From Candidatus Aldehydirespirator sp. (GTDB lineage: Bacteria; Actinomycetota; Acidimicrobiia; Acidimicrobiales; Aldehydirespiratoraceae), in the NCBI GenBank assembly GCA_965219165.1, contig CBDCMW010000002.1, positions 2,219,445 through 2,283,444 of the forward strand: DNA of 64,000 bases, in the 5' to 3' direction. Each line of letters begins with the position of its first letter. Within the stretch, counting starts at the first letter, position 1. The position numbers were made by a program, and so were the translations under genes. The notes beneath the pieces are model-generated. The model saw only the letters and a list, made by a program, of their open reading frames with translations, was not told the origin of the DNA and did not search any database. Below, in pieces: positions 9,802 to 28,454 of this stretch.

Positions 9802-11502
9802 TCACACCCCACTGACGTCGGTGAGCCACTCCGTAAGGATCGCGAGGAAGTCGGGGGCGAACTCGCGCTTCAGCCTGGCGTACTCGTTGACGCTGCCGGT
9901 GACGGCCTCCTGGAAGAGGTGATTCGTCGAGAAGATCGTGGCGATCGTGTGAGTCGGGACGCTCGACTCGGTGATGGCCTCGGACATGGCAGTCGAGTTG
10001 GCGGCTGCCGGAACCTGCGTATCCAGCTCGCCGTACAGGGCGATGACCGGAACGTCGAGGGCGGCTATGGCCGGCCTCGGGTCGTGCTCGAGGAACGACT
10101 CGAACCACGGGCTGTGCCATGTCGCCAGCTCTTCGGCGACGATGGAGTCCACTAAGGCGTCCTCGTCGGGTATCGCCTCCCGCGTCTGCTTCGGCATTGC
10201 CTCGAACTGTTGCTGAACCAGAATCCGCATGGTTGCTTCCGCCTCGTCCCATCCCTGCCCGGTGGCGACGGCGCGGAACACCGATTGCTGGAGCGCTCGG
10301 AACTGTTCGAACTCCTCGGCTGCGGCGCCGGACTCCTCGAAGAGCTCGAGCTGCTGCGCCGCCAGGATCTCCCCGGCAGGCACCGCAGGGGCAGCCAGAA
10401 GGGCCACGAAGGCGACGCCGTCGGTGCGGTTGGCCACCACCGGTGCGACGATCCCGCCCTCGCTGTGGCCGACCAGCCCGACGTTGCCGGCGTCGATGTC
10501 GTCGCGGGAGCGGAGCACGTCGACCGCGGCTTCGACATCGCCGGCACGGTCCTGGAGAGTGGCCTGCAGGCCGTCGCCCGTGGAGCCGCCGACGCCCCGG
10601 TCGTCGAACCGCAATGAGGCCACACCGGCGCCGGCCAGATGGTCGGCGAGCACTGCGAACAGCCGGAAGCCACCGATGTCGGAGTCCCTGTCCTGGTCGC
10701 CGCTGCCGCTGATCAGGACGACCGCGGCGTGGGGCCCGTCGCCCTCGGGCAACGTCAACTCACCGGCCAGGACGATGTCGCCGTTGGAGAAGACCACCTC
10801 CTCGCGGCGAAACGACGCACCTTCGCCGTACTCGCTGGGATCCTCGAAGCGCTGCAGCCAGAAGGTCTCCGCCATGCCGCCCTGGGTGAATTCGCCCTCG
10901 ATCACCCCGTCGCGCACTTCGCCCTCCCAGAGGGCGAGCCCGATGGGTGAGTCCAACTCGAAGTGGATGCGGCCCGCATCGAGCACGACGTTCGACAGCG
11001 GCAAACCGGACACGCCCTGGATGTCGATCGTCCCTCGAAGACCGTCTCCGGATGCGGTCATGTCCAGCGCAAAGGGCAGGTTGGCGGGTCCCGGTATCAA
11101 GATTTCGCCCTCCCAGCGCCCCTCCAGGTCCGCAGACCCCACGCCGGTCGCCCCGGCAGCATCTGGGGCGTCGGGATCCGCAGGCGCTGACGGTTGCGCC
11201 GGCTGGCTCGTGGCGGTCGTGCTGTCGACCGTCTCGACCGGCTCAGGGCTGGCGACCGTCTCCTCCGCGACCTCCGGAGCGTCCGATTCTGCAGGTGGCA
11301 GCGGTTCGGCCGGCGATGCCGACACCTCCGTGGAATCAACCGCGGCTACAGGCGCCGGCGCGGCCTCTGAGGGCGAGAGTTCCTGACCGCCGCACCCCGC
11401 CGCGGCAAGCAGCAGCACGACGAACACCGCGGCAAGAAGCCTGATATGTGTCACCTTAGCCAGCAATCGAATCTCGCAGGGGCACGGTTCCGGATCAGTC
11501 AT
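9802..11502 (-). CDS. Secreted lipoprotein, alpha/beta hydrolase
   Basis: Has a signal peptide and lipobox (LLLAAAGC), a Pro/Ala/Glu/Asp-rich low-complexity linker, and the GHSEGG nucleophile elbow. The start is uncertain: ATG 11502, GTG 11454 or ATG 11616. Confidence 0.75.
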   Translation of the reverse strand: MTDPEPCPCEIRLLAKVTHIRLLAAVFVVLLLAAAGCGGQELSPSEAAPAPVAAVDSTEVSASPAEPLPPAESDAPEVAEETVASPEPVETVDSTTATSQPAQPSAPADPDAPDAAGATGVGSADLEGRWEGEILIPGPANLPFALDMTASGDGLRGTIDIQGVSGLPLSNVVLDAGRIHFELDSPIGLALWEGEVRDGVIEGEFTQGGMAETFWLQRFEDPSEYGEGASFRREEVVFSNGDIVLAGELTLPEGDGPHAAVVLISGSGDQDRDSDIGGFRLFAVLADHLAGAGVASLRFDDRGVGGSTGDGLQATLQDRAGDVEAAVDVLRSRDDIDAGNVGLVGHSEGGIVAPVVANRTDGVAFVALLAAPAVPAGEILAAQQLELFEESGAAAEEFEQFRALQQSVFRAVATGQGWDEAEATMRILVQQQFEAMPKQTREAIPDEDALVDSIVAEELATWHSPWFESFLEHDPRPAIAALDVPVIALYGELDTQVPAAANSTAMSEAITESSVPTHTIATIFSTNHLFQEAVTGSVNEYARLKREFAPDFLAILTEWLTDVSGV

Positions 11503-14464: not shown

Positions 14465-14698
14465 TCGCACCGGCATGCCGCTCATGCACGAACTCTGTAC
14501 CCAGCCGGCTGGCTCGGTTCTCGGTCGACCAGCGCGGCCTCGAGGCCCTTGGCGCGCCGGGCGACACGCCTGCCATGCGGCCCGAGGCGAGCGCCACGCG
14601 ATCCAGGACCTGCCAGAGCGTCGGGCACCATGAGGTCGACGTAGACGCCGTCGGGACTGACCCATCTGCCCGGGGGCTCACACAGTGTGAAGCCGAAC

Positions 14699-14910
14699 GA
14701 CGCGTTGAGGCACAGCAGCCGCCCGGGCAGGCCGGGTGGATAGTTGTCGAACGCCTCGCAGGACACGAGAACGAGGTTGGCGACCCGATCCGAGTCGCCC
14801 GGGCTGACCACGAGCTGGGCGCCGCCCCAGTCGTTGCACACGAGCGTGACGTCGTGGAGATCGAGTTCGACGAGGAAGCCGGCGATCATCTTCGCGATCG
14901 ATTCGAGTGT
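14699..14910 (-). pseudogene. Internal fragment of a second alpha/beta hydrolase paralog
   Basis: TLESIAKMIAGFLVELDLHDVTLVCNDWGGAQLVVSPGDSDRVANLVLVSCEAFDNYPPGLPGRLLCLNAS is about 88% nt-identical to 12442-12650. Homology is lost on both sides. Confidence 0.55.
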
Positions 14911-15274
14911 CGTGGTGGCGGTGTTCTTTGCTGACCTTGTCACCCGTGTCGTTCCACGGCACACGAGCAACCAGCAACGCATCCGGCGTAGCGGCCCAAT
15001 CGCGAACTCCTCCTGCGCCTACTGCCCTCACCTCACCCAAGGACGCAAGCTGGGGAACTGAGCGGCAGCGCCCACAGGGGGCCACTCAGCGGTTGGCGTT
15101 GTCATACTGCTGCGGTACGGTTCGGCCGCTCGGGCGGCACTCCATGCTGAGGGCTAGGGGCCGGGCGAATCGCTGTCAAGCACCGCACGGTGTCAGCCGA
15201 CAGCCGCGAAGCGGCCCGTGCACCCGGGTGGTAGCTTCGCCGCTGCATCGTCAAGCACACGTGGAGGCACGGAA

Positions 15275-15451
15275 GTGGCTGAAGTTCGAATCGTGACTCG
15301 CGAGCAGATGCTCGACGAGCTCACAGAGATACTCGCGGACGAGCACATGACGCTCGACGAGTTCACCGCCGCAGGACAGGCCGACGTTCTCGACGACGCC
15401 TTCCATCGCGATCTCTGGCTCTATTACAGGGACTGGATCATCAAGGAGTGA
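15275..15451 (+). CDS. Small acidic hypothetical protein (58 aa)
   Basis: GGAGG lies 7 nt upstream of GTG 15275. There is a GTGA overlap with the next gene. No recognisable domain. Confidence 0.45.
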   Translation: MAEVRIVTREQMLDELTEILADEHMTLDEFTAAGQADVLDDAFHRDLWLYYRDWIIKE

Positions 15452-16146
15452 CAGAAGCGACGCTGCGCGACGGAACGGAGAGGTTCGCCGACACCCTCAA
15501 CAACATCGTCGAGGCCACGATCGACACTGACATTCGGTTTCGGACCGACATCGCCGCGGATGCCGAGCGGGCCAACCTCCAACCGATTCAGCACCCGGGA
15601 CGCCGCTCGAACGGGTTCCCGCTCGTCCGCCCGGGCGACAATCCCCAAGCGCCTGCCCTACTGCTCGTCGCAGGGTTCGCTGTCGAGATGGACGACGCGG
15701 ACCGGCATCTGCGCGTCGCTAGTTCGACGATCGGCCTCTGGGTAGACATCACCGGGGCACGCAAGGATCCGCGCCCGCTGATCCGAGTCGAGTACGACCG
15801 CCGCAGAGTGGCCAGCGACCGAGCGGCCGCACACGTCCATCTCCACGCGCACTCTCCCGAACTGGCCTGGGTATACGGATCCAGCGGCCGGCCCGCTCCC
15901 GATCTCCATCAACTCCACTTCCCGGTGGGCGGTCAGCGATTCAGGCCGACACTGGAGGAGTTCCTCTTGTTTCTGAACCGGGAGCGCCTATACACCGACT
16001 TCAAGGACGGCTGGAGGCCAGCTGTGCTGGCCTCCCTTCGAGAGCGGGAGGAGGTTCAAGCCTCGGCGACTGCGAGGCGCTTCCCCCAAGCGGCCGCACG
16101 CTCACTAGAGCGCCTCGGCTACAGGGTCATAGCCCCGGCAGCGTGA
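15448..16146 (+). CDS. Hypothetical protein (232 aa), His-rich HVHLHAHS motif
   Basis: Clean ORF coupled to 15275-15451. I could not assign it to any family. Confidence 0.55.
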   Translation: MTEATLRDGTERFADTLNNIVEATIDTDIRFRTDIAADAERANLQPIQHPGRRSNGFPLVRPGDNPQAPALLLVAGFAVEMDDADRHLRVASSTIGLWVDITGARKDPRPLIRVEYDRRRVASDRAAAHVHLHAHSPELAWVYGSSGRPAPDLHQLHFPVGGQRFRPTLEEFLLFLNRERLYTDFKDGWRPAVLASLREREEVQASATARRFPQAAARSLERLGYRVIAPAA

Positions 16147-16213: not shown

Positions 16214-18262
16214 TCAGAGCCGTTCGGGTTCCATGTGGCACCACTCATCGGTGCGCATTCTCCAGCCGTTGTCCTCGATGGCGATCTTCTTGCCGAAGGT
16301 CAGCCCCCATAGTGCTGTCATCGTGATCTCCCAGCGCACCCTTCGGTCTGTCGATTCGGCCACCCTGATTGTGTAGCTCGCTGTGGGCAGAGGGCTCAGC
16401 TCCTCTCTCAGGACTGCGCCGGGGGTGGGGAGCCCTTCTTCCAGTGGTTCAGGCACCTCGTAGTGCCCTTCCGACATCAGCGGGCAGTCGGAGAAGTCGG
16501 CGGGTGCCTGCAGTTCTTCGTGCTCTCGCATCAGGATGCGCCTGACGTCGTCGCTGTGGCCGGCATCGGTCAGGCACCACCGGGCCTGCTCAATACGCCA
16601 CAGCCCGTCGGCGGTGCGGCCGGCCTCCACAATGCCGAGGTGTATGACCCCGTCGGAGTCCTCCACAACGATCCGCCATCGATCTGATCCGAACCCGCGC
16701 TCGGCAACCTCGATGTCGTAGAGAGGCTCCGACAGGTCCCCGAGGTGGGCCAGAAGAGCTCGGGTAGCTGTCTCAAAGGTGTCAGAACCCCCGGTGTCCC
16801 GACTGTCGTGAGCGGCGAAAGTGGACCCCGTGCGACACGGGAACGAGTCACGGTACTCCGCAGACGTCAGCGGATCGGCGACCGCGGTGAGGGGCTTGGG
16901 CGGGAAGTGGAGCCCGTCATAGACCCAGCGTTGGCCCAGCGGATCGGACAGCTCGATGGTCACGGAGGTCGACGGGTTGTCCGGGCACGTCGCTGCTCCC
17001 GCGACCGGAACGACGGCGAACGCCACCAGCACCGCTTCGTCGGTCTCGATCACCTGGGGGTCCCTCAGCGCTTCTCCCATCTCTCGACCGCTGGCGCATC
17101 CACGCTCGGTGACCAGCAGGTCGACGGTCGTGTCGGCGGCACCGGGCATCGAGTCGGGGTCGAGGCGCACCTCGGCGCGGGCGAGCCCGGCCGGGAGCGG
17201 GACGGCCGGTTCACACGGGCGACCGGCGGCCTCCCCCGAGAAGATCCACTTGTCACCCTGGCGCTCGACGCCCGCGACACCGAAGCCGTCAGCGGCCAGA
17301 GCCGCGAACGTGGCCCGGTCGTCGTCGATGCTGATGACCACCCACCGTCCTCGGGGCAGGGTCTGGCCCCCGGGGGCGTCGAGCTCGCCCCTCAGCGCGT
17401 CCACGGCCGGGTGGTCGACCTCGTCGATCGAGGGCGGGTCGATCATCTGCGAGTAACGCACCGCCGGGGTGCCCGGACACGACACGAGGGGATCCTCCAC
17501 ACCGAGGTCGGGGATCACATCGAGCGGCCCGCTCGGCGGTTGCGACGTGCGAGTGACCTCGACACACACCGCCGAAGGGTCCGGGACGAGCTCTGCGATC
17601 TCGGCAAGGGCGCCCTCCGGCGGGTTCACAAGATCTAGATGGACGCGCTGGCGGCTGATGTAGAGCCCCGAACCGTCCAGGCCGAAGTCCCGACCGGCGA
17701 TCGCCCTGTGCACCCTGTCTGCCATGGCCAACAGCTCGGCCTCGCTGAACCGCACTCGGACCACGTCGATGACCACGTCCTCTCGTTCGCCCAGCGTCCG
17801 AGGATCGGTGACCGGTGGGCGCGGGTCGACGGCGGGATAGTCGTCCGGGGAGGGGGCGCGGGCCAGGATCGCCTCGCGATGAGCATCGGGATCGTCGGTG
17901 AATCCCAGAACGAGCGCGCCGCCGTTGGCCCGATCGATCCAACGCCCGCCGAAGGTGTCGGGATGCTCCATCGCGTACGTGGTCAGCACACCCTTGACGA
18001 TCGGATCGGGATTCTGGCGGGCGCCCATGGTGCCCTCGAACCGCGACCCCAGCCGGGGGACGTCATCGCAGTGCGCCAGCCCGGCCGTGGGGGAAGGTTC
18101 GGGCTCGGAGCCGACAACCGTGGGGGAAGGTTCGGGCTCGGAGCCGACAACCGTGGAGGAGGGGCCGGGCTCGGAGCCGACAACCACGACGTCCGCGGAA
18201 TCGGCACCGCTGCATCCGACGGCCAGCACCGCCACAGCCAACAGTGTCGCCGACGCCTTCAT
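16214..18262 (-). CDS. Large secreted lipoprotein, unknown function (682 aa)
   Basis: Has a signal peptide and lipobox (LAVLAVGCSG), followed by VVGSEPEPSPT repeats. Confidence 0.7.
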   Translation of the reverse strand: MKASATLLAVAVLAVGCSGADSADVVVVGSEPGPSSTVVGSEPEPSPTVVGSEPEPSPTAGLAHCDDVPRLGSRFEGTMGARQNPDPIVKGVLTTYAMEHPDTFGGRWIDRANGGALVLGFTDDPDAHREAILARAPSPDDYPAVDPRPPVTDPRTLGEREDVVIDVVRVRFSEAELLAMADRVHRAIAGRDFGLDGSGLYISRQRVHLDLVNPPEGALAEIAELVPDPSAVCVEVTRTSQPPSGPLDVIPDLGVEDPLVSCPGTPAVRYSQMIDPPSIDEVDHPAVDALRGELDAPGGQTLPRGRWVVISIDDDRATFAALAADGFGVAGVERQGDKWIFSGEAAGRPCEPAVPLPAGLARAEVRLDPDSMPGAADTTVDLLVTERGCASGREMGEALRDPQVIETDEAVLVAFAVVPVAGAATCPDNPSTSVTIELSDPLGQRWVYDGLHFPPKPLTAVADPLTSAEYRDSFPCRTGSTFAAHDSRDTGGSDTFETATRALLAHLGDLSEPLYDIEVAERGFGSDRWRIVVEDSDGVIHLGIVEAGRTADGLWRIEQARWCLTDAGHSDDVRRILMREHEELQAPADFSDCPLMSEGHYEVPEPLEEGLPTPGAVLREELSPLPTASYTIRVAESTDRRVRWEITMTALWGLTFGKKIAIEDNGWRMRTDEWCHMEPERL
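18085..18183. repeat. 33-bp x3 in-frame tandem repeat in the lipoprotein linker
   Basis: ccgtgggggaaggttcgggctcggagccgacaa at 18085-18117 and 18118-18150, with a diverged third unit at 18151-18183. Confidence 0.85.
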
Positions 18263-18499
18263 GTCCGCTTAGACGACACAGCCTCTCTGGGAGTTCCCGA
18301 CCCGCTGCCAAGCGATAGCCGTCCAAGCAGAGTCGGCCGTAGCCAGGCTGGACATACCCCACAATGGAATAGCACATGCAGCGTTACCGCCGCCGAGTTC
18401 CCACGTCCTCAGAGGACTCCGTAGCAGACGCGCTCGGCGGGGCGCGCGGCTTCCTGCGTGCCACCGTCTTGAAGGCCTCTTCCGCGGGCGAGAGGCCCC

Positions 18500-18626
18500 G
18501 CAGCGCTGTCGCCGAACCGGGTGGCGATGCTGAGACTTGCGACCAAACTGACCACGACGCCGGGCGCGACGAACGACGCCGATGTCGATGCCCTGACATT
18601 GGCCGGTTTCTCTGATCGTGACATCC
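18500..18626 (+). pseudogene. Fragment of a CMD/AhpD-like gene (paralog of 20856-21404)
   Basis: AALSPNRVAMLRLATKLTTTPGATNDADVDALTLAGFSDRDI aligns with 21190-21316 at both nt and aa level. There is no flanking homology. Confidence 0.55.
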
Positions 18627-18881
18627 CGACTGGCCGACGTGCTGGTCAAGGCGTTCGGCCCGCCCCGAGTCTTGGCCGCAGTGCTCGCCCGCATCGACAA
18701 CATCGACACGGCGCACATCTACGGACTCCGGGCGGCACGCCTCCTAGGCGGCAGCGCCGACCGTGCTGTCGGCGACATCAACGTCCTGGTTCTCGGTTCG
18801 CCCCGTGCTCGGCACAGTCATGTGCGAAACGTCGGGCGCCGCCGGTCAATCTGGCCGGCGACGCACAGCGAACCTGTCTTG

Positions 18882-19079
18882 TCAGGCCGGTTTGACGTTC
18901 TGAGCTTCGTCTCCCTTACGGCCGGGCCCGATGTCGAATTCGACTATCTGCCCTTCGTGGAGGCTTCTGTGGTTCTCGCCGACGATGTTGGAGTAGTGAA
19001 CGAACACGTCGTCACCGCCGTCGCGCGAGATGAAGCCGAAGCCCTTGTCGCTATTGAAAAACTTGACAGTTCCTCGCAT
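18882..19079 (-). CDS. Cold-shock protein (CSD)
   Basis: Has RNP1/RNP2 motifs: [15 protein letters not shown] and VFVHYS. Length 65 aa. Confidence 0.92.
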
Positions 19080-19612
19080 TGATTCTCTCTCTATGCCAAC
19101 CGGACCTGGTGCCCAGTGTCAATGTGAGTCTATGCCGTGCCGGTGCCGAACCGGGCGCGCCCGATCCAGCCCGGCGGGCATCGGTCTTCGGCTCCGCTCA
19201 CGCGTTGGCCGATTCGAGTCTCGGGAGCCACCTTCACAGCCCCAAATCCCGGCGCCGCTCGGTCCCCGGGTTTCCGGCTCGCCGAGTCCGTGGACCCAAG
19301 CCGCCACGATATCATTCTCGATGTCATGTGGTCGGTGGAGGTGGATCCTCGCTCCCGCACACTGACGATGCTGTCCGCCATCACCCCGCATGGTCGGCAC
19401 CCCCTCCTGCGTTGTGGGGCTCGCCGGGAGCGCAATCGCGCCACCCTCGCCCGCCTCGTCGACGAACCCCGCCCCCAGCCAGAGGATTGACGCCGTGGCG
19501 GTGGACGGCATGCTCCTGTCGCGGCCCGACCGCATGGCGATCCTCGGCGACTCCGTCGCCGTGCACGCCATCGCTGCCGCGGGCGCCGGGAACCTGCCCA
19601 GACTCACTAGCC

Positions 19613-20803
19613 ATGGCTGCTAGCACCACCCGCACCGACGCGGCCGCGGTGGCCGCGTCGGGCGCGTTGCTGGCGGCGGGGGCCATTCCACAGATCATCT
19701 CTGGCCCGCTGGCGCCCTACCTGCGGCTGGACCTGGGCATCAGTTCGTCGGAGCTGGGGCTGGGCCTGTCGCTGTCGGCCGTTCCCGCCGTGGTGCTGTC
19801 GGTGTGGGGCGGACGGATGACGGACCGCATCGGCGGGATCGCCATCGGCCGGCTCACATGCATCTGCTCCGGCTTGTTCGTGGTCGCGCTGTCCCAGGCG
19901 CCCAGCACAGCGTGGTTCGTGGCGACGCTGGCCGCAGCCGGATTCCTGCGGGTGCTCTCCGAGCCGAGCTCCTCGAGGATCCTCGTGGACCTGCTGGCCC
20001 GCACGCCGCGCGTCCTCGCCTTCGGCATCCGCGAGGCGTCGTTGCCGCTGCTCGTGCTCGTGTCCACCGCGGTGCTGCCCGTGTTCGGCGACTGGCTGGG
20101 CTGGCGCACCGTCTTCGCCGCATCCTCGATCGTCGCGGTGGCGGGGCTGTGGCTGCTGCTCGGGCCGGTGCGGCCCCGCGGGCAGGCAGGCACACCGGAC
20201 TCCGCGCCGAACCCGGCCACACCGGTCCCAGCCCAGCAGCCAGAGAGCCCCAGCGGCGATGTCGCCTCTTTGGGATTGCGCTTCTATGGCGGCGCCGCTC
20301 TGCTCATGTTCAACCTGGTCGTGTTCAACTCCTTCGCGTCGCTGTCCTTCGTCGACTCCGGAGCCAGCGCCGACGCCGCGGCGGCCCTGGTGGCGGCCTC
20401 GGCGGGAGGAACCGTGCTCATGCGCATCGGCTGCGCCCACGCGGTCACCCGGCGCGGGCTCAACGCTCGCTCGACCCTGGCAGCGATGGCCGCGGCGGCA
20501 GTCGTCGGCTACCTGGCCATGGCCACCGGCAACAGCGCTCTGATGCTCGTCGGCATACCGGTCGGATACCTGGCCGGCTGGGGATGGACTCCGCTGCTGT
20601 ACAGCCACATAACCGTCGGGCGCGAGCAGTCCACGGGAATGATCACCGGGGTGGTGTCGACCCTGTTCGCGGCCGCAGCCATCGCCGGCCCAGTCGCGGC
20701 CGGCTGGGCCGGCGAGCAGCTCGGCTGGTCGGCGGTGTGGGCCACAGCAGCACTGTTCTCGGCGCTAGCGGCCGCCCTCATGGGGTACCGGCACCAGCAT
20801 TGA
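19613..20803 (+). CDS. MFS transporter
   Basis: Multiple TM segments and the GGRMTDRIGG loop motif. Starts at ATG 19613, not at the 19079 ORF start. Confidence 0.8.
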   Translation: MAASTTRTDAAAVAASGALLAAGAIPQIISGPLAPYLRLDLGISSSELGLGLSLSAVPAVVLSVWGGRMTDRIGGIAIGRLTCICSGLFVVALSQAPSTAWFVATLAAAGFLRVLSEPSSSRILVDLLARTPRVLAFGIREASLPLLVLVSTAVLPVFGDWLGWRTVFAASSIVAVAGLWLLLGPVRPRGQAGTPDSAPNPATPVPAQQPESPSGDVASLGLRFYGGAALLMFNLVVFNSFASLSFVDSGASADAAAALVAASAGGTVLMRIGCAHAVTRRGLNARSTLAAMAAAAVVGYLAMATGNSALMLVGIPVGYLAGWGWTPLLYSHITVGREQSTGMITGVVSTLFAAAAIAGPVAAGWAGEQLGWSAVWATAALFSALAAALMGYRHQH

Positions 20804-20855
20804 TTCCCAGAATCGCAGATTCGCAGAGTCGCCGACTCGTGTGAGACGCTGCACC

Positions 20856-21404
20856 ATGGCACGCATCAAGATCATTCCCGACGACTCCTGGGACGGCGCG
20901 CTCGGTGAGCTCCATCCCCAGGTCGTCGATCGCGCCTACGGCCGGGTCGACAACATCCTCGCCGTGCACTCGCTGAACCCGCGCGGCATGGCGGCACACC
21001 AGGGTCTGTACGAATCGGCCATGGCTGGCACTGCGACGCTCCGCAAGGTCGAGCGCGAGCTCATCGCCCTGGTCGTGAGTCTCGAGAACGACTGCCACTA
21101 TTGAGTCGTCCACCACCGGCGCGGTCTGCGCCGGCTGATCAACGACGACGAGCTCGCCGCGGCGATCGAACAAGACTGGACAACGGCAGCGCTGTCGCCG
21201 AACCGGGTGGCGATGCTGAGATTCGCGATCAAACTGACGACCGCGCCGGGCGCCATGAACGACGCCGACGTCGATGCCCTGAGACTGGCCGGCTTCTCTG
21301 ATCGTGACATCCTCGACATAGTCGAGGTCGTCGGCTACTACGCGTACGCGAATCGGATCGCCGACGGTCTCGGCATCGAGACCGAACCTTGGAACACCGG
21401 CTGA
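20856..21404 (+). CDS. CMD/AhpD-like peroxidase-related protein with in-frame TGA (candidate selenocysteine) at 21102-21104
   Basis: A single 183-codon frame. It reads ...LIALVVSLENDCHY-TGA-VVHHRRGLRRL...AGFSDRDILDIVEVVGYYAYANR. The TGA sits where the family has the second Cys of CxxC. Confidence 0.6.
21116..21134 (+). promoter_or_regulatory. SECIS-like hairpin
   Basis: ccggcgc-GGTCT-gcgccgg is a perfect 7-bp stem starting 11 nt after the TGA, with a GGUCU apical loop. Confidence 0.5.
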
Positions 21405-21501: not shown

Positions 21502-22500
21502 ATGACTGAGGACGCCGCGGGGCACGGGGGAGGAGACGCGGTGACCGATGACGACGCCGTGCACGGCGACGACTTCTGTTTGGCCAACGGTCTGGCCGGC
21601 GAGGCGCTGTCGATTCCGTCAGCGAATCCCAAGAACTTCCATCAAGCGATCTCCGACACCGATGCGATGCCCCGCCAGGACCTGTGGGCAAAGCTCTTCC
21701 TGCCCCACGGGCCCGGACCGTTCCCGGTCGTGATCATCGTCCCGGGCAGCCTCGGGCTCCAACAGCCCCACATCGCGATCGCGGCGACGCTCACCGACGC
21801 CGCCGTCGCGGCGTGCGCCATCGACCCGTTCCGCCGTCGTGGCGTCGTCAGCACGGTCGACAATCAGATCCAGTTCTCCTTCGCTGCCAGTGCCTGGGAC
21901 GTTCTCGCCACCGCTGAGTTCCTTGCGGCCCGCCCCGAGATCGACGCAGCACGAGTCGGTGCCCAAGGCCACAGCCGAGGCGGCTCGGCGGTGCTGAGCG
22001 CCGCGTCGGTGCACCTCGCAGCAGCAGCCAACGCCCCCAAGCTCATCGGGGTGTACGCCGCCTATCCCTGGTCGGGACACCAGTTCCTGAACCCCGCCGT
22101 CGGGGCTACACGCGTCCGCGCCATCATCGGCGATCTCGACGACTGGTGCTCACCAACGCAGGTCCAAGCCCACATCCATGCCATACGGGCCGCTGGTGGC
22201 GATGCGACTGTGCGGATCGTGGCGGGCGCACGCCACAGCTTCGACCGCACAACCCCCCTCGAGCACATACCCCACGCCTCCGTGACGCCCGGAGCGCCCA
22301 CCGTCTACATCGCAGACGACGGCGCCTTCATCCTGCCGACCTCCGACGAGCCAGACCCGAAGCTGGTCGATCTCGACGGCTTCCTCTACGCCATCAACGC
22401 AGGCTTCGGAGTCCGCGGCGCCCACATCGCCGGAAGCCCCGAACTCGCGCCGCTCTTCATGAACGACATGACGACATTCTGGACCGACGTCACGAGGTAG
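21502..22500 (+). CDS. Dienelactone hydrolase family protein
   Basis: Has FPVVIIVPGS and the GHSRGG nucleophile elbow. Confidence 0.75.
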   Translation: MTEDAAGHGGGDAVTDDDAVHGDDFCLANGLAGEALSIPSANPKNFHQAISDTDAMPRQDLWAKLFLPHGPGPFPVVIIVPGSLGLQQPHIAIAATLTDAAVAACAIDPFRRRGVVSTVDNQIQFSFAASAWDVLATAEFLAARPEIDAARVGAQGHSRGGSAVLSAASVHLAAAANAPKLIGVYAAYPWSGHQFLNPAVGATRVRAIIGDLDDWCSPTQVQAHIHAIRAAGGDATVRIVAGARHSFDRTTPLEHIPHASVTPGAPTVYIADDGAFILPTSDEPDPKLVDLDGFLYAINAGFGVRGAHIAGSPELAPLFMNDMTTFWTDVTR

Positions 22501-22657: not shown

Positions 22658-25600
22658 CTAGAGGACGTTGCCGTAGCGGTGGGTGGTGCGGGTGACGGCC
22701 TGCTCGCGCAGGTAGTGGAGCAGCTCGACGCGGCCCTCGGCGGTGACGGGGTCGTCGGCGATGTGGACGCCGGCGTCGTTGCCGGCGGCTCGCAGCTCGC
22801 GGCTGCAGGTTCCCACTACCCGGACCCGCTGGATGTCCAGGACGTCGAGGCGGGCAGCGAAGGCGGCCGCGGTCTCGTCGGCGGCGCGCGACTCGATGAG
22901 GGCCACGTTGCAGCGGCGGGCCGCGGCCCGGACTCGTTCGACGTCTCGGGGCGCGGCGTCGGCCTCGGCCCGCAGCGCCATGCGGGGCAGGCACCGGTAG
23001 CGCAAGACGTTGGACTCGCAGAACAACCCGGTCGGGTCGTGCTCGACGCCGAACTCGGTTTGCCAGGCCGCCTCGTCGCTGGCTCGGGCCGCGGCCAGCC
23101 ACTCGTCGTCGCTGAGGCCGGTGTCGACCGGGTGCCAGGTGCCGAGGCGGGCCACGTAGTTGGGGCCGCCGGCCTTGGCGCCGGGACCGACCGAGGACTT
23201 CTTCCAGCCGCCGAAGGGCTGGCGGCGCACGATGGCGCCCGTGGTGGGACGGTTGATGTAGGCGTTGCCGACTTCCACTGCGTCGGTCCACTGTCGGATC
23301 TCGGCGGGGTCGAGGGTGTGGATGCCGCCGGTGAGGCCGTAGTCGGTGGAGTTCTGGATGGCTATGGCGTCTTCGAGCGTCTCGGCTCGCATCAATCCCA
23401 GCACCGGGCCGAAGCACTCCGTCAGGTGGAACCACGAGCCGGGCCGCACCCCGAGGCGCACGCCCGGCGTCCAAGTCTGCGCGCCGAGGCGTCGAGGCGC
23501 GGCCAGCCACTCCTCGCCGTCGTCGAGGCGGGTCAGCGCCCGCAACAGCTTGCCCTCGGGCTCGTTGATGGTGGGACCCATGGTGGTGGCCACATCGGTG
23601 CTGGGTCCGACCTGGAGGCTGGACACTGCGTCGGTGAGCTGGCGGCGCAGGCGGGGCGAGTCGTAGGCGTCGCCCACGCAGATGGCGAGGCTGGCCGCCG
23701 AGCACTTCTGCCCCGAGTGGCCGAACGCGGAGGCGACCAGGTCGGCCACGGCCAGGTCGATGTCCGAGTTGGGGGTGATCACTATGGCGTTCTTGCCCGA
23801 GGTCTCCGCGAACAGGCGCAGGTCGGGCTTCCACGACAGGAACATCGCGGCGGTGTCGTAGCCGCCGGTGAGGATCACCGCGCCCACCTCGGGATGGGTC
23901 ACCAGATGCCGGCCGACCTCGCCGCCGGACGTGCGCACGAACCCGACGAGGCCCCGGGGCAGGCCCGCGGCCCAGCAGCACTCAGCCACGATCTCCGAGC
24001 AGCGGGGCGTCTTGGAGGACGGCTTCAATACGGCGGCGTTGCCCGCGGCCAGCGCGGCGAAGACTCCGCCGGAGGGTATGGCCACCGGGAAGTTCCACGG
24101 CGGCACCACCAGCACGGTTCCGAGCGGCTCGAACCGAGCCAAACCGGAGGCAGCCAGCTCTGAGCCGGCCGGATCGAGGGCCCGGTCGCCGTACCAGCGG
24201 GCGAAGTCGATGGCCTCGGACACCTCGGGGTCGGCCTCGGCGATGGTCTTGCGGCCCTCATGCACCATGGCCGCCACCAGGTCGCCCCGGCGGCGGGCGA
24301 GCTCGCCGGCCACCCGCCACAGCAGGTTCCGGCGCTCGGCGGGCAGGCGGGCGGCCCAACCCTGCTGCGCCCGGGCGGCGGCGTGCACCACCCGGTCCAC
24401 CTCGTCAGTAGTCCGGCTGAAGGGCGCGGCCGGGCCGCTCCATTGCCCCGAGACGATCTCGCGGGCCCAGGCCCGGTTGGGTGCCAGCGCGGGATCGGTG
24501 TCCGGCTCGTTGAAGAACCCCGCCGCGGCGACGGCCGGCTCGGGCTCGCGGCGGCGGTCCTGTTGGCGGCGCGGGGCGCGGCCCACCGACCACCGGCCGG
24601 CGACCGCGGTGCGGAACTTGGCTGCCTCGGCCTCGAAGGCGGCGCTGCCGGGCTCGAGGCCGAACAGGTGGTGGATGAAGTTCTCCTCCGACGCGTTCTC
24701 CTCGAGGCGCCGGAACAGGTAGGCGATGGCCACATCGAAGTCCTCCGCGGCCACTGCGGGCGTGTACAGCAGCACCCCCCTGCCGTCTCGGCGCAGAAGC
24801 TCCGCCTGGGTGGGCGCCATGCCCTCGAGCAGCTCGAACTCCACCCGGTCACGAACGCCGCGCCGTCCGGCCAGCAGGTCGGCCCAGGCCACGTCGAACA
24901 GGTTGTGGCTGGCCACCCCGACGCGCACCGACGCGGTGCGCTCACCGGTGAGCACCCAGTCGAGGCAGCGCTTGTAGTTGGCGTCGGTCTCGGCCTTGCT
25001 CCGATAGGGCGCCTGGGGCCAGCCGTGCAAGGCCGCCTCCACCCGCTCCATGGCCAGGTTCGCCCCCTTGACCAGGCGGATCTTGATCGTGGCGGACCGC
25101 CGGCCGGCGGTGACCAGGCCGTTGTGCCAATCCACCAGGTCCTGCAACGCGCCGAAGCAGTCGGGCAGGTATGCCTGCAGCACGATGCCGGCGTCGACCG
25201 CCGCGAACTCGGGCTCCTGGAGCAGTTCTCGGAAGGCCGCGGCGGTGAGCTCGAGGTCGTGGTACTCCTCCATGTCGAGGTTGATGAAGGTCGGCGGCGT
25301 TGTCGCCGCGGCCGCTCGAAGCAGAGGCCGCAGGGCCTCGACCACCGGCTGCAGCGACCCGTCGAAGTCCCAAGGATTCAGCTGTGACACCACCGCGGAG
25401 ACCTTCACCGACACGTAGTCCACGTCGGGCTGGGCCAGGGTGCGGAGCACCTCCTGGTGCCGTCGCCGGGCCTCGGCGTCGCCGAGCACGGCCTCGCCGA
25501 GCATGTTGACGTTGAGCGAGTAGCCCGCCGCGGCCCGGCTCTGCAGGTGGGCAGCCAGCCGCTCGGGCTGGGAGTCGACGACGAGGTGGCCCACGAGCGC

Positions 25601-25954
25601 CCTCATGCGGCGCCGGGCGATCGGCATCACGATCCTGGGAAACGTCGGCCCGAGCCGGGCGCCGACGCGCAGCAGCAACCGGTCGACGGGCGACAGGAAG
25701 GCGGGCAACTCGGCCTCAGCCACCAGCGACGCCAACTGCCGCGCCGACACCGCCGGATCCTCGGGCCGGACCACCCGGTCGACGAAGCGCATCGCGAAGG
25801 CGGTGCCCGGCCTGTCGCTGACCACATCCGCCAACCGTCTCGCGGCCGAGCGCTCCCGTCTCGACTCCGACGTGCTGGCGGCCTCCAGCCAGCACTCGAC
25901 CCGCTCGACGGCCTCGTCGGCCAGCAACTCGGGATCCTTCGGGTGGTCGTCCAC
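22658..25954 (-). CDS. putA: Bifunctional proline dehydrogenase / P5C dehydrogenase
   Basis: Has an N-terminal PRODH barrel (LNVNMLGE, IKIRLVKGAN, YLFRRLEEN) and a C-terminal ALDH domain with GQKCSAAS. Length 1098 aa, with no RHH domain. Confidence 0.9.
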   Translation of the reverse strand: MDDHPKDPELLADEAVERVECWLEAASTSESRRERSAARRLADVVSDRPGTAFAMRFVDRVVRPEDPAVSARQLASLVAEAELPAFLSPVDRLLLRVGARLGPTFPRIVMPIARRRMRALVGHLVVDSQPERLAAHLQSRAAAGYSLNVNMLGEAVLGDAEARRRHQEVLRTLAQPDVDYVSVKVSAVVSQLNPWDFDGSLQPVVEALRPLLRAAAATTPPTFINLDMEEYHDLELTAAAFRELLQEPEFAAVDAGIVLQAYLPDCFGALQDLVDWHNGLVTAGRRSATIKIRLVKGANLAMERVEAALHGWPQAPYRSKAETDANYKRCLDWVLTGERTASVRVGVASHNLFDVAWADLLAGRRGVRDRVEFELLEGMAPTQAELLRRDGRGVLLYTPAVAAEDFDVAIAYLFRRLEENASEENFIHHLFGLEPGSAAFEAEAAKFRTAVAGRWSVGRAPRRQQDRRREPEPAVAAAGFFNEPDTDPALAPNRAWAREIVSGQWSGPAAPFSRTTDEVDRVVHAAARAQQGWAARLPAERRNLLWRVAGELARRRGDLVAAMVHEGRKTIAEADPEVSEAIDFARWYGDRALDPAGSELAASGLARFEPLGTVLVVPPWNFPVAIPSGGVFAALAAGNAAVLKPSSKTPRCSEIVAECCWAAGLPRGLVGFVRTSGGEVGRHLVTHPEVGAVILTGGYDTAAMFLSWKPDLRLFAETSGKNAIVITPNSDIDLAVADLVASAFGHSGQKCSAASLAICVGDAYDSPRLRRQLTDAVSSLQVGPSTDVATTMGPTINEPEGKLLRALTRLDDGEEWLAAPRRLGAQTWTPGVRLGVRPGSWFHLTECFGPVLGLMRAETLEDAIAIQNSTDYGLTGGIHTLDPAEIRQWTDAVEVGNAYINRPTTGAIVRRQPFGGWKKSSVGPGAKAGGPNYVARLGTWHPVDTGLSDDEWLAAARASDEAAWQTEFGVEHDPTGLFCESNVLRYRCLPRMALRAEADAAPRDVERVRAAARRCNVALIESRAADETAAAFAARLDVLDIQRVRVVGTCSRELRAAGNDAGVHIADDPVTAEGRVELLHYLREQAVTRTTHRYGNVL

Positions 25955-27002: not shown

Positions 27003-28454
27003 GTGACGCCGGATCAGACGCCTGTCATCGTCGGCGTGTCCATCACGGCACCGCACGATCCGGATGCGCTCACAGAGCCGGTCTCGCTCATGATCGACGC
27101 GGCACGCGCCGCGATCGACGACTGCGGCGGCGCCGGCATGGGCCCGAGAGTCGACCTTGTTGGCGTCGCTGGAGGCTTGTGGCGCTATCGCAACCCCGGG
27201 AGCTGGATCGCCGCGGCGATCGAAGCCGACGCCCGCACGCTCTTGACCACCATCGGCGGGCAGACACCGGTGGCGCTGCTCGCTGAGATCGCCGATCGCA
27301 TCCAACGAGGCGCACTCGGCGCGGCGCTGATCGTCGGGGGCGAGTGCACCCGGTCCCGCCGGATGGCGCGGCGACAGGGCATCGAAGTCCCGAGGCTCCC
27401 CGAGACACAGCCTTCGCCCGACGAGTTCTGGGGACCGCCGCTGGTGATCGGAGATCCAGCCGCGGAAGCCGTCGCCGGCGATGTGCCCAGAAACGCCTTC
27501 GCGCTCCTCGAGAGCGCCATAAGGGCAAGGCGGGGCGAGTCTGTGGCCGAGAACCGCCGTCGGGCCGCGGAACTCTGCGCAGGATTCTCCAAAGTTGCCG
27601 CTGGCGTTGAGCATGCCGCCACTCGGCGTGCGATGTCACCGGGAGAGATCGCCGAGGTTTCCCCCACGAATCGGATGGTGAGCTGGCCGTACACGAAGGC
27701 CATGGTGGCCAACAACACGGTCGACCGGGCCGGCGCCTTGGTCGTCTGCTCGCTGGCAGTCGCACGAGAACACGCAATCGCGCAAGACCGCATGGTCTTC
27801 CCCTGCCGCATCGCCCTTGCCGACGACACCGAATTCGTGGCGAGCCGGCGCGACCTCGCCACCAACCCCGGCCTGCAAGCAGCAGCCGACGACATTCTCG
27901 CGGTCACCGGAGACTCCGCCAGCATCAGCCACATGGATCTCTATGCCTGCTTCCCCTCAATGGTTGCGCTCAGCATGGACGCGCTCGGGATCGTTGATCG
28001 TCGCCCTCTCACCGTCTCGGGAGGCCTCGGGTTCACGGGCGCGCCCGTGAACTTCGGCGCGGGCGAGGGACTCATCGCCATGGTGGATCGTTTGCGCGAG
28101 GACGCCCCGCACTGCACAGGCCTGGTGCAAGGCAGCGGCGGCATCGCGGCCAAGCACGCTCTCGGCCTGCTGTCCTCGTCTCCGCCGATGTCGCCGTACC
28201 TCACCTCGCGGCAGACCGCGGCACTGCACCCCCGCGATCTCGCTCCCCCGGACCGTGACGGGCCAGTCATCCTCGACGCCGTGACCGTGGACTTCCTCCA
28301 GCCATCACCCACCGTGGTCGGGCTGGTCCGCTTCGAAGACGGAACACGACGCTGGGCCACCGCACGCGACCAAGCGACGATCGACGCGGTCACCAACGAC
28401 GAGACGGTCGGCACCTCCGCAGACATCCGGGACGGTCGCCTGATCCTCCATTGA
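27003..28454 (+). CDS. Thiolase-like (acetyl-CoA acetyltransferase family) protein
   Basis: Thiolase-fold N- and C-domains read from the translation (IVGGEC...; SGGLGFTGAP). Confidence 0.65.
   Translation: MTPDQTPVIVGVSITAPHDPDALTEPVSLMIDAARAAIDDCGGAGMGPRVDLVGVAGGLWRYRNPGSWIAAAIEADARTLLTTIGGQTPVALLAEIADRIQRGALGAALIVGGECTRSRRMARRQGIEVPRLPETQPSPDEFWGPPLVIGDPAAEAVAGDVPRNAFALLESAIRARRGESVAENRRRAAELCAGFSKVAAGVEHAATRRAMSPGEIAEVSPTNRMVSWPYTKAMVANNTVDRAGALVVCSLAVAREHAIAQDRMVFPCRIALADDTEFVASRRDLATNPGLQAAADDILAVTGDSASISHMDLYACFPSMVALSMDALGIVDRRPLTVSGGLGFTGAPVNFGAGEGLIAMVDRLREDAPHCTGLVQGSGGIAAKHALGLLSSSPPMSPYLTSRQTAALHPRDLAPPDRDGPVILDAVTVDFLQPSPTVVGLVRFEDGTRRWATARDQATIDAVTNDETVGTSADIRDGRLILH

Follow-up and report, generated by a model that had tools for sequence, protein, structure and literature searches.

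An AhpD-like gene with an in-frame TGA

The window analysed here is the whole 64-kb stretch of DNA (G+C content 67%, GC3 in genes approximately 0.8-0.9). It contains a frame running from an ATG at 20856 to a TGA at 21402-21404, in which the sole internal stop is a TGA at 21102-21104 (context ...SLENDCHY-TGA-VVHHRRGLRR...), and which the ORF list breaks into 20841-21104 and 21207-21404. An earlier note on this DNA had given the positions of the frame, the TGA, the ORF split and a hairpin downstream, and all of these proved right on rechecking. Under a GC3-based filter, no TGA in the 64-kb window other than the one at 21102-21104 has a strong coding signal on both sides. The gene, its internal features and its surroundings are as follows.

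20856..21404, forward strand: candidate AhpD-like selenoprotein gene (TIGR01926, CMD fold), complete, 182 residues plus terminal TGA
21093..21104, forward strand: redox motif C80-H-Y-U83, with TGA 21102-21104 at the second Cys position of CxxC
21117..21133, forward strand: conserved core of the putative SECIS, 6-bp stem 21117-21122/21128-21133 and loop GGUCU 21123-21127
21116..21134, forward strand: 7-bp form of the hairpin, with an outer C-G pair (21116/21134) that is present in the window and not conserved
21402..21404, forward strand: true TGA stop of the gene, with no SECIS 3' of it
18500..18630, forward strand: relic of a second gene copy, 132 bp, corresponding to nt 331-462 of the gene at 90% identity
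18882-19079, reverse strand: cold-shock protein, neighbour
19616-20803: MFS transporter, neighbour
21502-22500: dienelactone hydrolase-family protein (DLH), neighbour
22658-25954, reverse strand: PutA, neighbour
AraC/PAS regulator, neighbour

None of these neighbours suggests a partner protein for the interrupted gene. Near the gene, four sizeable ORFs have no Pfam match at E <= 0.001 (16214-18262, reverse; 27003-28454, forward; 14482-15018, reverse; 15448-16146, forward), one of them encoding 682 aa.

With Cys placed at the TGA, the product scores 138.4 bits against the NCBIfam model TIGR01926, “peroxidase-related enzyme” (cutoff 81.8), in a match that is nearly end to end (residues 27-177 on profile positions 25-176 of 178), and 44.2 against Pfam CMD (cutoff 23). 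PDB relatives 3c1l, 2pfx and 6k40 (“AhpD”) are found at 1e-29 to 1e-23, so that the fold can be regarded as already fixed, and they carry Cys in the column of the TGA. The pattern E-x11-C-x2-C-x3-H, the catalytic signature of Mycobacterium tuberculosis AhpD, is matched in the product as E68-x11-C80-x2-U83-x3-H87, and HMM score and catalytic signature both place the product in TIGR01926. The window protein shares its CMD fold and its E68/C80/U83/H87 signature with M. tuberculosis AhpD, but would have Sec for the second Cys, belongs to the “peroxidase-related” TIGR01926 subfamily rather than to AhpD proper, and has no ahpC partner gene nearby. It is likewise distinct from NF041238, “AhpD_rel_CFYUT (seleno)protein”, an AhpD-related family with Sec at the same CxxU position: the score of 41.8 bits lies far below the cutoff of 175 and comes from the C-terminal part only of a 357-position model, and the product is not a member.

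Conservation of the TGA and of the frame across it

To place the TGA in an evolutionary context, relatives were collected by a scan of one genome per GTDB species, giving 76 loci. Loci L001-L060 come from Acidimicrobiia metagenome-assembled genomes (MAGs) at 63-93% identity, including Candidatus Aldehydirespirator, Poriferisodalis and Spongiisocius, lineages which are largely sponge-associated (PMC11706023). Of 65 homologs that are at least 60% identical (approximately 60 Acidimicrobiia MAGs), 64 have a TGA at the aligned codon. The sole exception is a second copy in L041, in which 7 nt including the TGA have been lost and the frame is shifted. The earlier note had placed the TGA at the second Cys of the redox motif, and this is borne out by more distant homologs (25-41% identity), all 14 of which have TGC or TGT in this column, as well as by five full-length Cys forms in the protein databases.

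The sequence downstream of the TGA evolves as coding sequence. Orthologs align across the codon (residues 1-179), the 59 unique genes contain no other in-frame stop and no frameshift, and dN/dS has a median of 0.131 before the TGA and of 0.215 after it. Intact frames and a low downstream dN/dS together indicate that translation continues in frame into the 3' half and that purifying selection acts on it. Residues E68, C80, U83, H86 and H87 are invariant in all 59 unique genes. Since the terminal stop is also TGA in 57 of the 64 TGA-bearing genes, UGA must still act as a stop in these organisms and has not been reassigned genome-wide. The gene therefore shows properties expected of a bacterial selenoprotein gene: a UGA aligned with Cys, a UGA kept in orthologs, and a 3' region that evolves as coding.

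A few relatives depart from this pattern. L081 (protein P0001) has a genuine TGG (Trp) at the Sec codon with the hairpin intact, and L082 (P0002) has TTA (Leu), its stem being preserved by a compensatory double change from G-C to U-A. Each is known from one short metagenome contig (1.9 kb in the case of L081), and these variants may be recent Sec-loss mutations or sequencing errors. The extra copy at L041 19097-19626, minus the 7 nt that span the TGA and frameshifted, still contains the hairpin sequence, and would be either a pseudogene or an assembly error.

A hairpin laid over a conserved peptide

In the window, the hairpin ccggcgc-GGTCT-gcgccgg (21116-21134) begins eleven nt past the TGA; its 6-bp stem begins 12 nt and its apical loop 18 nt after the UGA. 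The predicted free energy is -14.0 kcal/mol for the 7-bp hairpin alone, -10.7 kcal/mol for the 6-bp core and -23.3 kcal/mol for a 49-nt context, the last with z = -2.7 relative to dinucleotide shuffles. Neither strand of the 64-kb window has another hairpin of 5 bp or more with a GGTCT loop, and the combination of TGA and hairpin goes beyond chance. Among 46 distinct sequences, an RNAalifold consensus and pair counts delimit the conserved core as a 6-bp stem with GGUCU, the loop being invariant (46/46). The seventh pair (15/33) is open in 17 of the 46, so that the perfect 7-bp hairpin described in the earlier note stands for the window while only its 6-bp core is a property of the family. A predicted lower stem, GUCGUC/GACGAC, was rejected, as only 83% of cells pair and one of its pairs is broken in 22/46 sequences.

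How much of this conservation reflects RNA rather than protein is complicated by the peptide beneath it. The residues RRGLRR, encoded as CGN-CGN-GGN-CUN-CGN-CGN, force four of the six stem pairs and the GG-CU of the loop, which makes a perfect hairpin less surprising than it looks; the informative sites should be the third-position pairs and the loop U. Formal covariation is weak, with one compensatory pair and unimpressive shuffle controls, because the element barely varies, and as covariation is unconvincing alone we turned to synonymous sites instead. The Gly codon at +7 is GGT in 59/59 unique genes, against a GGT share of 14% among the other Gly codons of these genes; in most of the other conserved Gly columns, three or four codons are in use. 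The Leu codon at +8 is CTG in 59/59. Pair +5.3/+9.3 is kept in all 46 distinct sequences (GC in 36, GU in 8 and CG in 2, the CG of L058 and L059 being compensatory), and pair +6.3/+8.3 in 45/46. When synonymous codings of RRGLRR are sampled according to the family's own codon usage, stem plus GGUCU is expected in 1.8% of cases; it is observed in 57 of 59 genes. These figures show a constraint on loop codon choice that acts at the level of RNA.

Relatives with Cys in place of the TGA are informative here. The Cys forms P0007-P0009 are 53-56% identical to the window protein and keep the peptide HHRRGLRR, and the hairpin in Cys-form loci ranges from intact with one G-U pair (L077), through loss of the closing pair (L078), to a decayed state in which the loop has GGC and two pairs are gone (L079 and L080). 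This gradation looks like a series of fossil SECIS elements left after replacement of Sec by Cys, on which RNA-level constraint would have been relaxed. In a divergent TGA form (L085, 46% identity), where the peptide is HHGESLRL, the same offset is occupied by another 6-bp hairpin, whose loop contains G-U.

Comparison with known bacterial SECIS elements

The bSECIS model specifies a loop of 3-9 nt, an upper stem of 4-16 bp, a G in the first two loop positions (pattern G[G|U]), a UGA-to-loop distance of 16-37 nt and a free energy of -7.5 kcal/mol or lower (PMC13188914). Judged by this model the window element qualifies on all four of its criteria, having a loop of 5 nt that starts with GG, a stem of 6-7 bp, a distance of 18 nt and a free energy of -10.7 to -14.0 kcal/mol. 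A likeness to the fdhF SECIS, which the earlier note had put forward, is exact in two respects when set against E. coli K-12: in fdhF, where the Sec-UGA is codon 140, the loop is also GGUCU and also starts 18 nt after the UGA. Both elements lie inside coding sequence. They differ in that fdhF encodes an unrelated protein (formate dehydrogenase H, Sec140) in another phylum, that the stem in the window gene is a perfect G+C-rich helix of 6-7 bp with no visible bulged U, and that fdhF has a long lower helix for which no conserved equivalent exists in the AhpD-like element, where SelB binding is putative. Rfam covariance models gave no match at the gathering score, and a permissive scan of the element returned only a chance match (E = 6) to an unrelated family; Rfam covers bacterial SECIS poorly (bioRxiv 10.64898/2026.04.03.716425).

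Taken together, we consider it very probable (approximately 0.93) that this is an AhpD-like gene with a Sec-encoding TGA and a bona fide bacterial SECIS. The proposal of a CMD/AhpD-like selenoprotein with which the analysis began is upheld by the conserved TGA, purifying selection downstream of it, agreement with the bSECIS model and the constraint on loop codons.

Selenocysteine machinery and further candidate selenoproteins

ARAGORN detected no tRNA-Sec in the window or in 70 loci, which cover less than 1% of each genome, and tblastn found no homologs of SelA, SelB or SelD (probed with the E. coli sequences) in the window or in approximately 1.6 Mb of related loci, again less than 1% of each genome. 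With so small a fraction sampled, the absence of sel genes is uninformative rather than negative. A lone tblastn match, adjoining the gene in L017, is by sequence the GTPase TypA/BipA and not SelB. Indirect support comes from the literature on related organisms: a sponge Acidimicrobiia bin, bin76, has two SelA and one SelB, and bin134 has neither (PMC5649159 Table S4); all 84 complete genomes of Actinomarina (class Acidimicrobiia; Actinomarinales) are reported to encode selA, selB, selC and selD (bioRxiv 10.64898/2026.04.03.716425); and Sec traits are on record for other Actinobacteria. The earlier note had weighed the rarity of Sec in high-GC actinobacteria; the organism belongs to the Acidimicrobiia (marine, probably sponge-associated) and is not a classical actinomycete.

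Further indirect support comes from three relatives (L018, L013 and L027), in which another redox gene interrupted by TGA lies no more than 10 kb from the first; in each of them Pfam matches run across the TGA. In L018, an ORF at approximately 17935-19258 on the minus strand (TGA 18670) encodes an AhpC/TSA-Redoxin protein with the motif W-U-G-C, and CCUGCC-GGUCU-GGCAGG, with the same loop as the AhpD-like SECIS, lies 20 nt past its TGA; this gene is probably a “Prx-like (UGC)” selenoprotein. L013 (forward, TGA 14675) and L027 (forward, TGA 12516) encode an SLH plus Redoxin/thioredoxin-fold protein with the motif W-U-P-T-C and a 6-bp hairpin approximately 34 nt downstream. This gene is conserved in both MAGs at a distance of 4 kb from the AhpD-like one, which makes a second selenoprotein probable. 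All three genes fit known Prx-like selenoprotein families that have been reported as neighbours of AhpD-like genes. Other candidates fared less well: recurrent “REV*HE” frames that have GGUCU hairpins, seen in L030, L032 and L034, were discarded as antisense to a 611-aa gene, and most of the remaining TGA candidates look like antisense-frame noise.

Alternative explanations

Some observations weigh against reading the UGA as Sec. Two homologs have TGG and TTA, respectively, at the Sec codon and an intact hairpin; one Cys form (L077) also keeps an intact hairpin, and the Cys forms share RRGLRR; bin134, from a sponge Acidimicrobiia, lacks SelA and SelB (PMC5649159); and the element has no Rfam match. 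Among the explanations that dispense with Sec, the one that survives best, improbable as we judge it, is that a tRNA for Trp, Cys or Gly, whether near-cognate or suppressor, reads through the UGA and that the hairpin serves as a general stimulator. This would accommodate both the failure to see Sec machinery in the window and approximately 1.6 Mb of loci (less than 1% of each genome) and the natural TGG variant with its intact hairpin. However, the site is the catalytic Cys of CxxC, at which known selenoproteins of the TIGR01926 family have Sec; loop and spacing equal those of the SelB-binding element of E. coli fdhF; and other redox genes of the relatives have TGA at the active-site Cys, one of them with the same loop. 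Trp at the redox Cys would moreover abolish dithiol chemistry, and the TGG form is known from one metagenome contig of 1.9 kb.

Less credible still is a split gene, in which the UGA ends translation and the C-terminal half is a product of its own (82 aa plus 63-100 aa). Gene callers report exactly these two products, but the window has no start codon between the TGA and a GTG at 21207, and a separate product starting at this first GTG would lose 34 conserved residues, including H87 and the invariant HHRRGLRR. The halves also lie in the same frame, exactly one codon apart, in 59 genes, and the junction lies inside both the CMD fold and the catalytic motif.

We give almost no weight to a pseudogene created by a recent TGC to TGA nonsense mutation in a Cys-type CMD gene, with the hairpin a by-product of the RRGLRR codons: four of six stem pairs are indeed forced by the peptide and shared by Cys forms, and the gene is known in decayed form (as the relic at 18500-18630 and as the frameshifted L041 copy), but a TGA in the same codon in 64/65 homologs from approximately 60 genomes, down to 63% identity, together with a downstream dN/dS of 0.215 in 59 genes without further stops or frameshifts, rules out the fresh nonsense mutation that the earlier note had named as the alternative, and the synonymous sites of loop and stem are frozen.

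Proposed mechanism

On the selenoprotein reading, the gene would encode a 182-residue AhpD-like thiol/selenol oxidoreductase in which the UGA at 21102-21104 is read as Sec. The 6-bp mRNA hairpin with its GGUCU loop would act as a bacterial SECIS: SelB-GTP with Sec-tRNA(Sec) would bind the loop and deliver Sec at the UGA, roles for SelB and tRNA-Sec that we infer, as we do the incorporation of selenium at this codon. The terminal UGA, which has no hairpin, would lead to termination. With Sec at the position of the nucleophilic Cys of AhpD, reduction of peroxides or of oxidised peroxiredoxin partners, via a selenenylsulfide with C80, is the most likely activity of the predicted enzyme. We regard the gene as a real but ordinary selenoprotein gene for a predicted AhpD-like antioxidant enzyme.

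Relation to the known AhpD-like selenoprotein family

The AhpD-like selenoprotein family, discovered in metagenomes of the Sargasso Sea and GOS, has been known since 2005 and is abundant in marine data, with 27 CxxU sequences from the Sargasso Sea and 299 from GOS (PMC13188914; PMC1088965; PMC2398784), and “AhpD-like protein, TIGR01926, CxxU” is a row in the table of a 2026 review (PMC13188914). With Sec also reported in Acidimicrobiia and sponge symbionts, the novelty of the gene was over-rated in the earlier note. Compared with this family (COG2128 / TIGR01926, CxxU), the window gene belongs to the same HMM family, has the same Sec position and shares the SECIS directly downstream, the marine origin and the occasional Prx-like selenoprotein neighbours; there is no essential difference. 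What our analysis adds to the family is its assignment to Acidimicrobiia (Aldehydirespirator, Poriferisodalis and Spongiisocius), its frequent tandem copies and a near-invariant SECIS within HHRRGLRR. The lineage assignment, the dynamics of multiple copies and relics and the overlap of SECIS and conserved peptide can be called mildly new, the basic biology being already known. The gene also illustrates cleanly how a SECIS can overlie a conserved peptide, with loop and spacing identical to those of fdhF in a distant phylum.

This overlap raises a speculative possibility, that it might ease switching between Cys and Sec in the AhpD-like family. Because the codons of HHRRGLRR give four of the six stem pairs and most of GGUCU, a working SECIS would lie near any Cys form. 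A stronger version, in which the conserved peptide pre-adapts the family for Sec so that few synonymous changes lead from a Cys form to a SECIS, strikes us as rather unlikely. If it were true, it would account for the place of AhpD-like proteins among the commonest marine selenoproteins, for the coexistence of Sec, Cys, Trp and Leu variants with intact or “fossil” hairpins, and for the several tandem Sec copies kept by sponge-associated Acidimicrobiia, possibly as part of a symbiosis-linked enlarged selenoproteome.

Database annotation of the interrupted gene

The Sec form is common and systematically mis-annotated, with gene callers routinely splitting the gene. We examined the best 120 relatives among 5.8 billion database proteins. 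Of these, 98 are C-terminal fragments of approximately 100 aa that start right after the TGA, many of them named “peroxidase-related enzyme [Acidimicrobiales bacterium]”, and four are N-terminal fragments ending C-x-Y. Six more are “full-length” proteins with W at the Sec column, five are true Cys forms and one has Leu. The W is mostly not a real Trp: in three of the four cases checked (P0003, P0004 and P0015) it is a TGA read under genetic code 4, and only P0001 has a genuine TGG. The three are JGI metagenome gene calls (L083, L084 and L085), and that for L083 also runs through the true TGA stop, which gives it a false C-terminal tail. The window's own gene is recorded as products of 82 aa and 63 aa in all three assemblies shown.

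The main value of the present result accordingly lies in annotation correction and ecology. Joining the halves would restore a conserved, predicted antioxidant selenoenzyme across many Acidimicrobiia MAGs. The gene also identifies these lineages as users of selenium, a point of relevance to the ecology of trace elements in sponges and the ocean.

Gene copies and rearrangement at the locus

Several relatives (L004/L005, L024, L046 and L052) have two intact copies of the gene a few kb apart. The relic at 18500-18630 in the window is intergenic, adjoins the cold-shock gene and has neither the TGA/SECIS part nor an intact frame; its place is taken by an intact gene in L001 and L003, which suggests that the window has one decayed copy besides the intact one. 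The exact 82-aa N-terminal product was found on 10 contigs of ENA long-read assemblies, among which a 2.06-Mb contig (L087) is syntenic with the window and 95-96% identical to it, and therefore comes from the same or a sister species. L086, L087 and L088 are 95-98% identical to the window near the gene and diverge downstream of position 10550. Downstream of the gene, one of the three has DLH and PutA, and the other two have a LysR regulator and other genes. The locus appears to lie at a rearrangement-prone spot.
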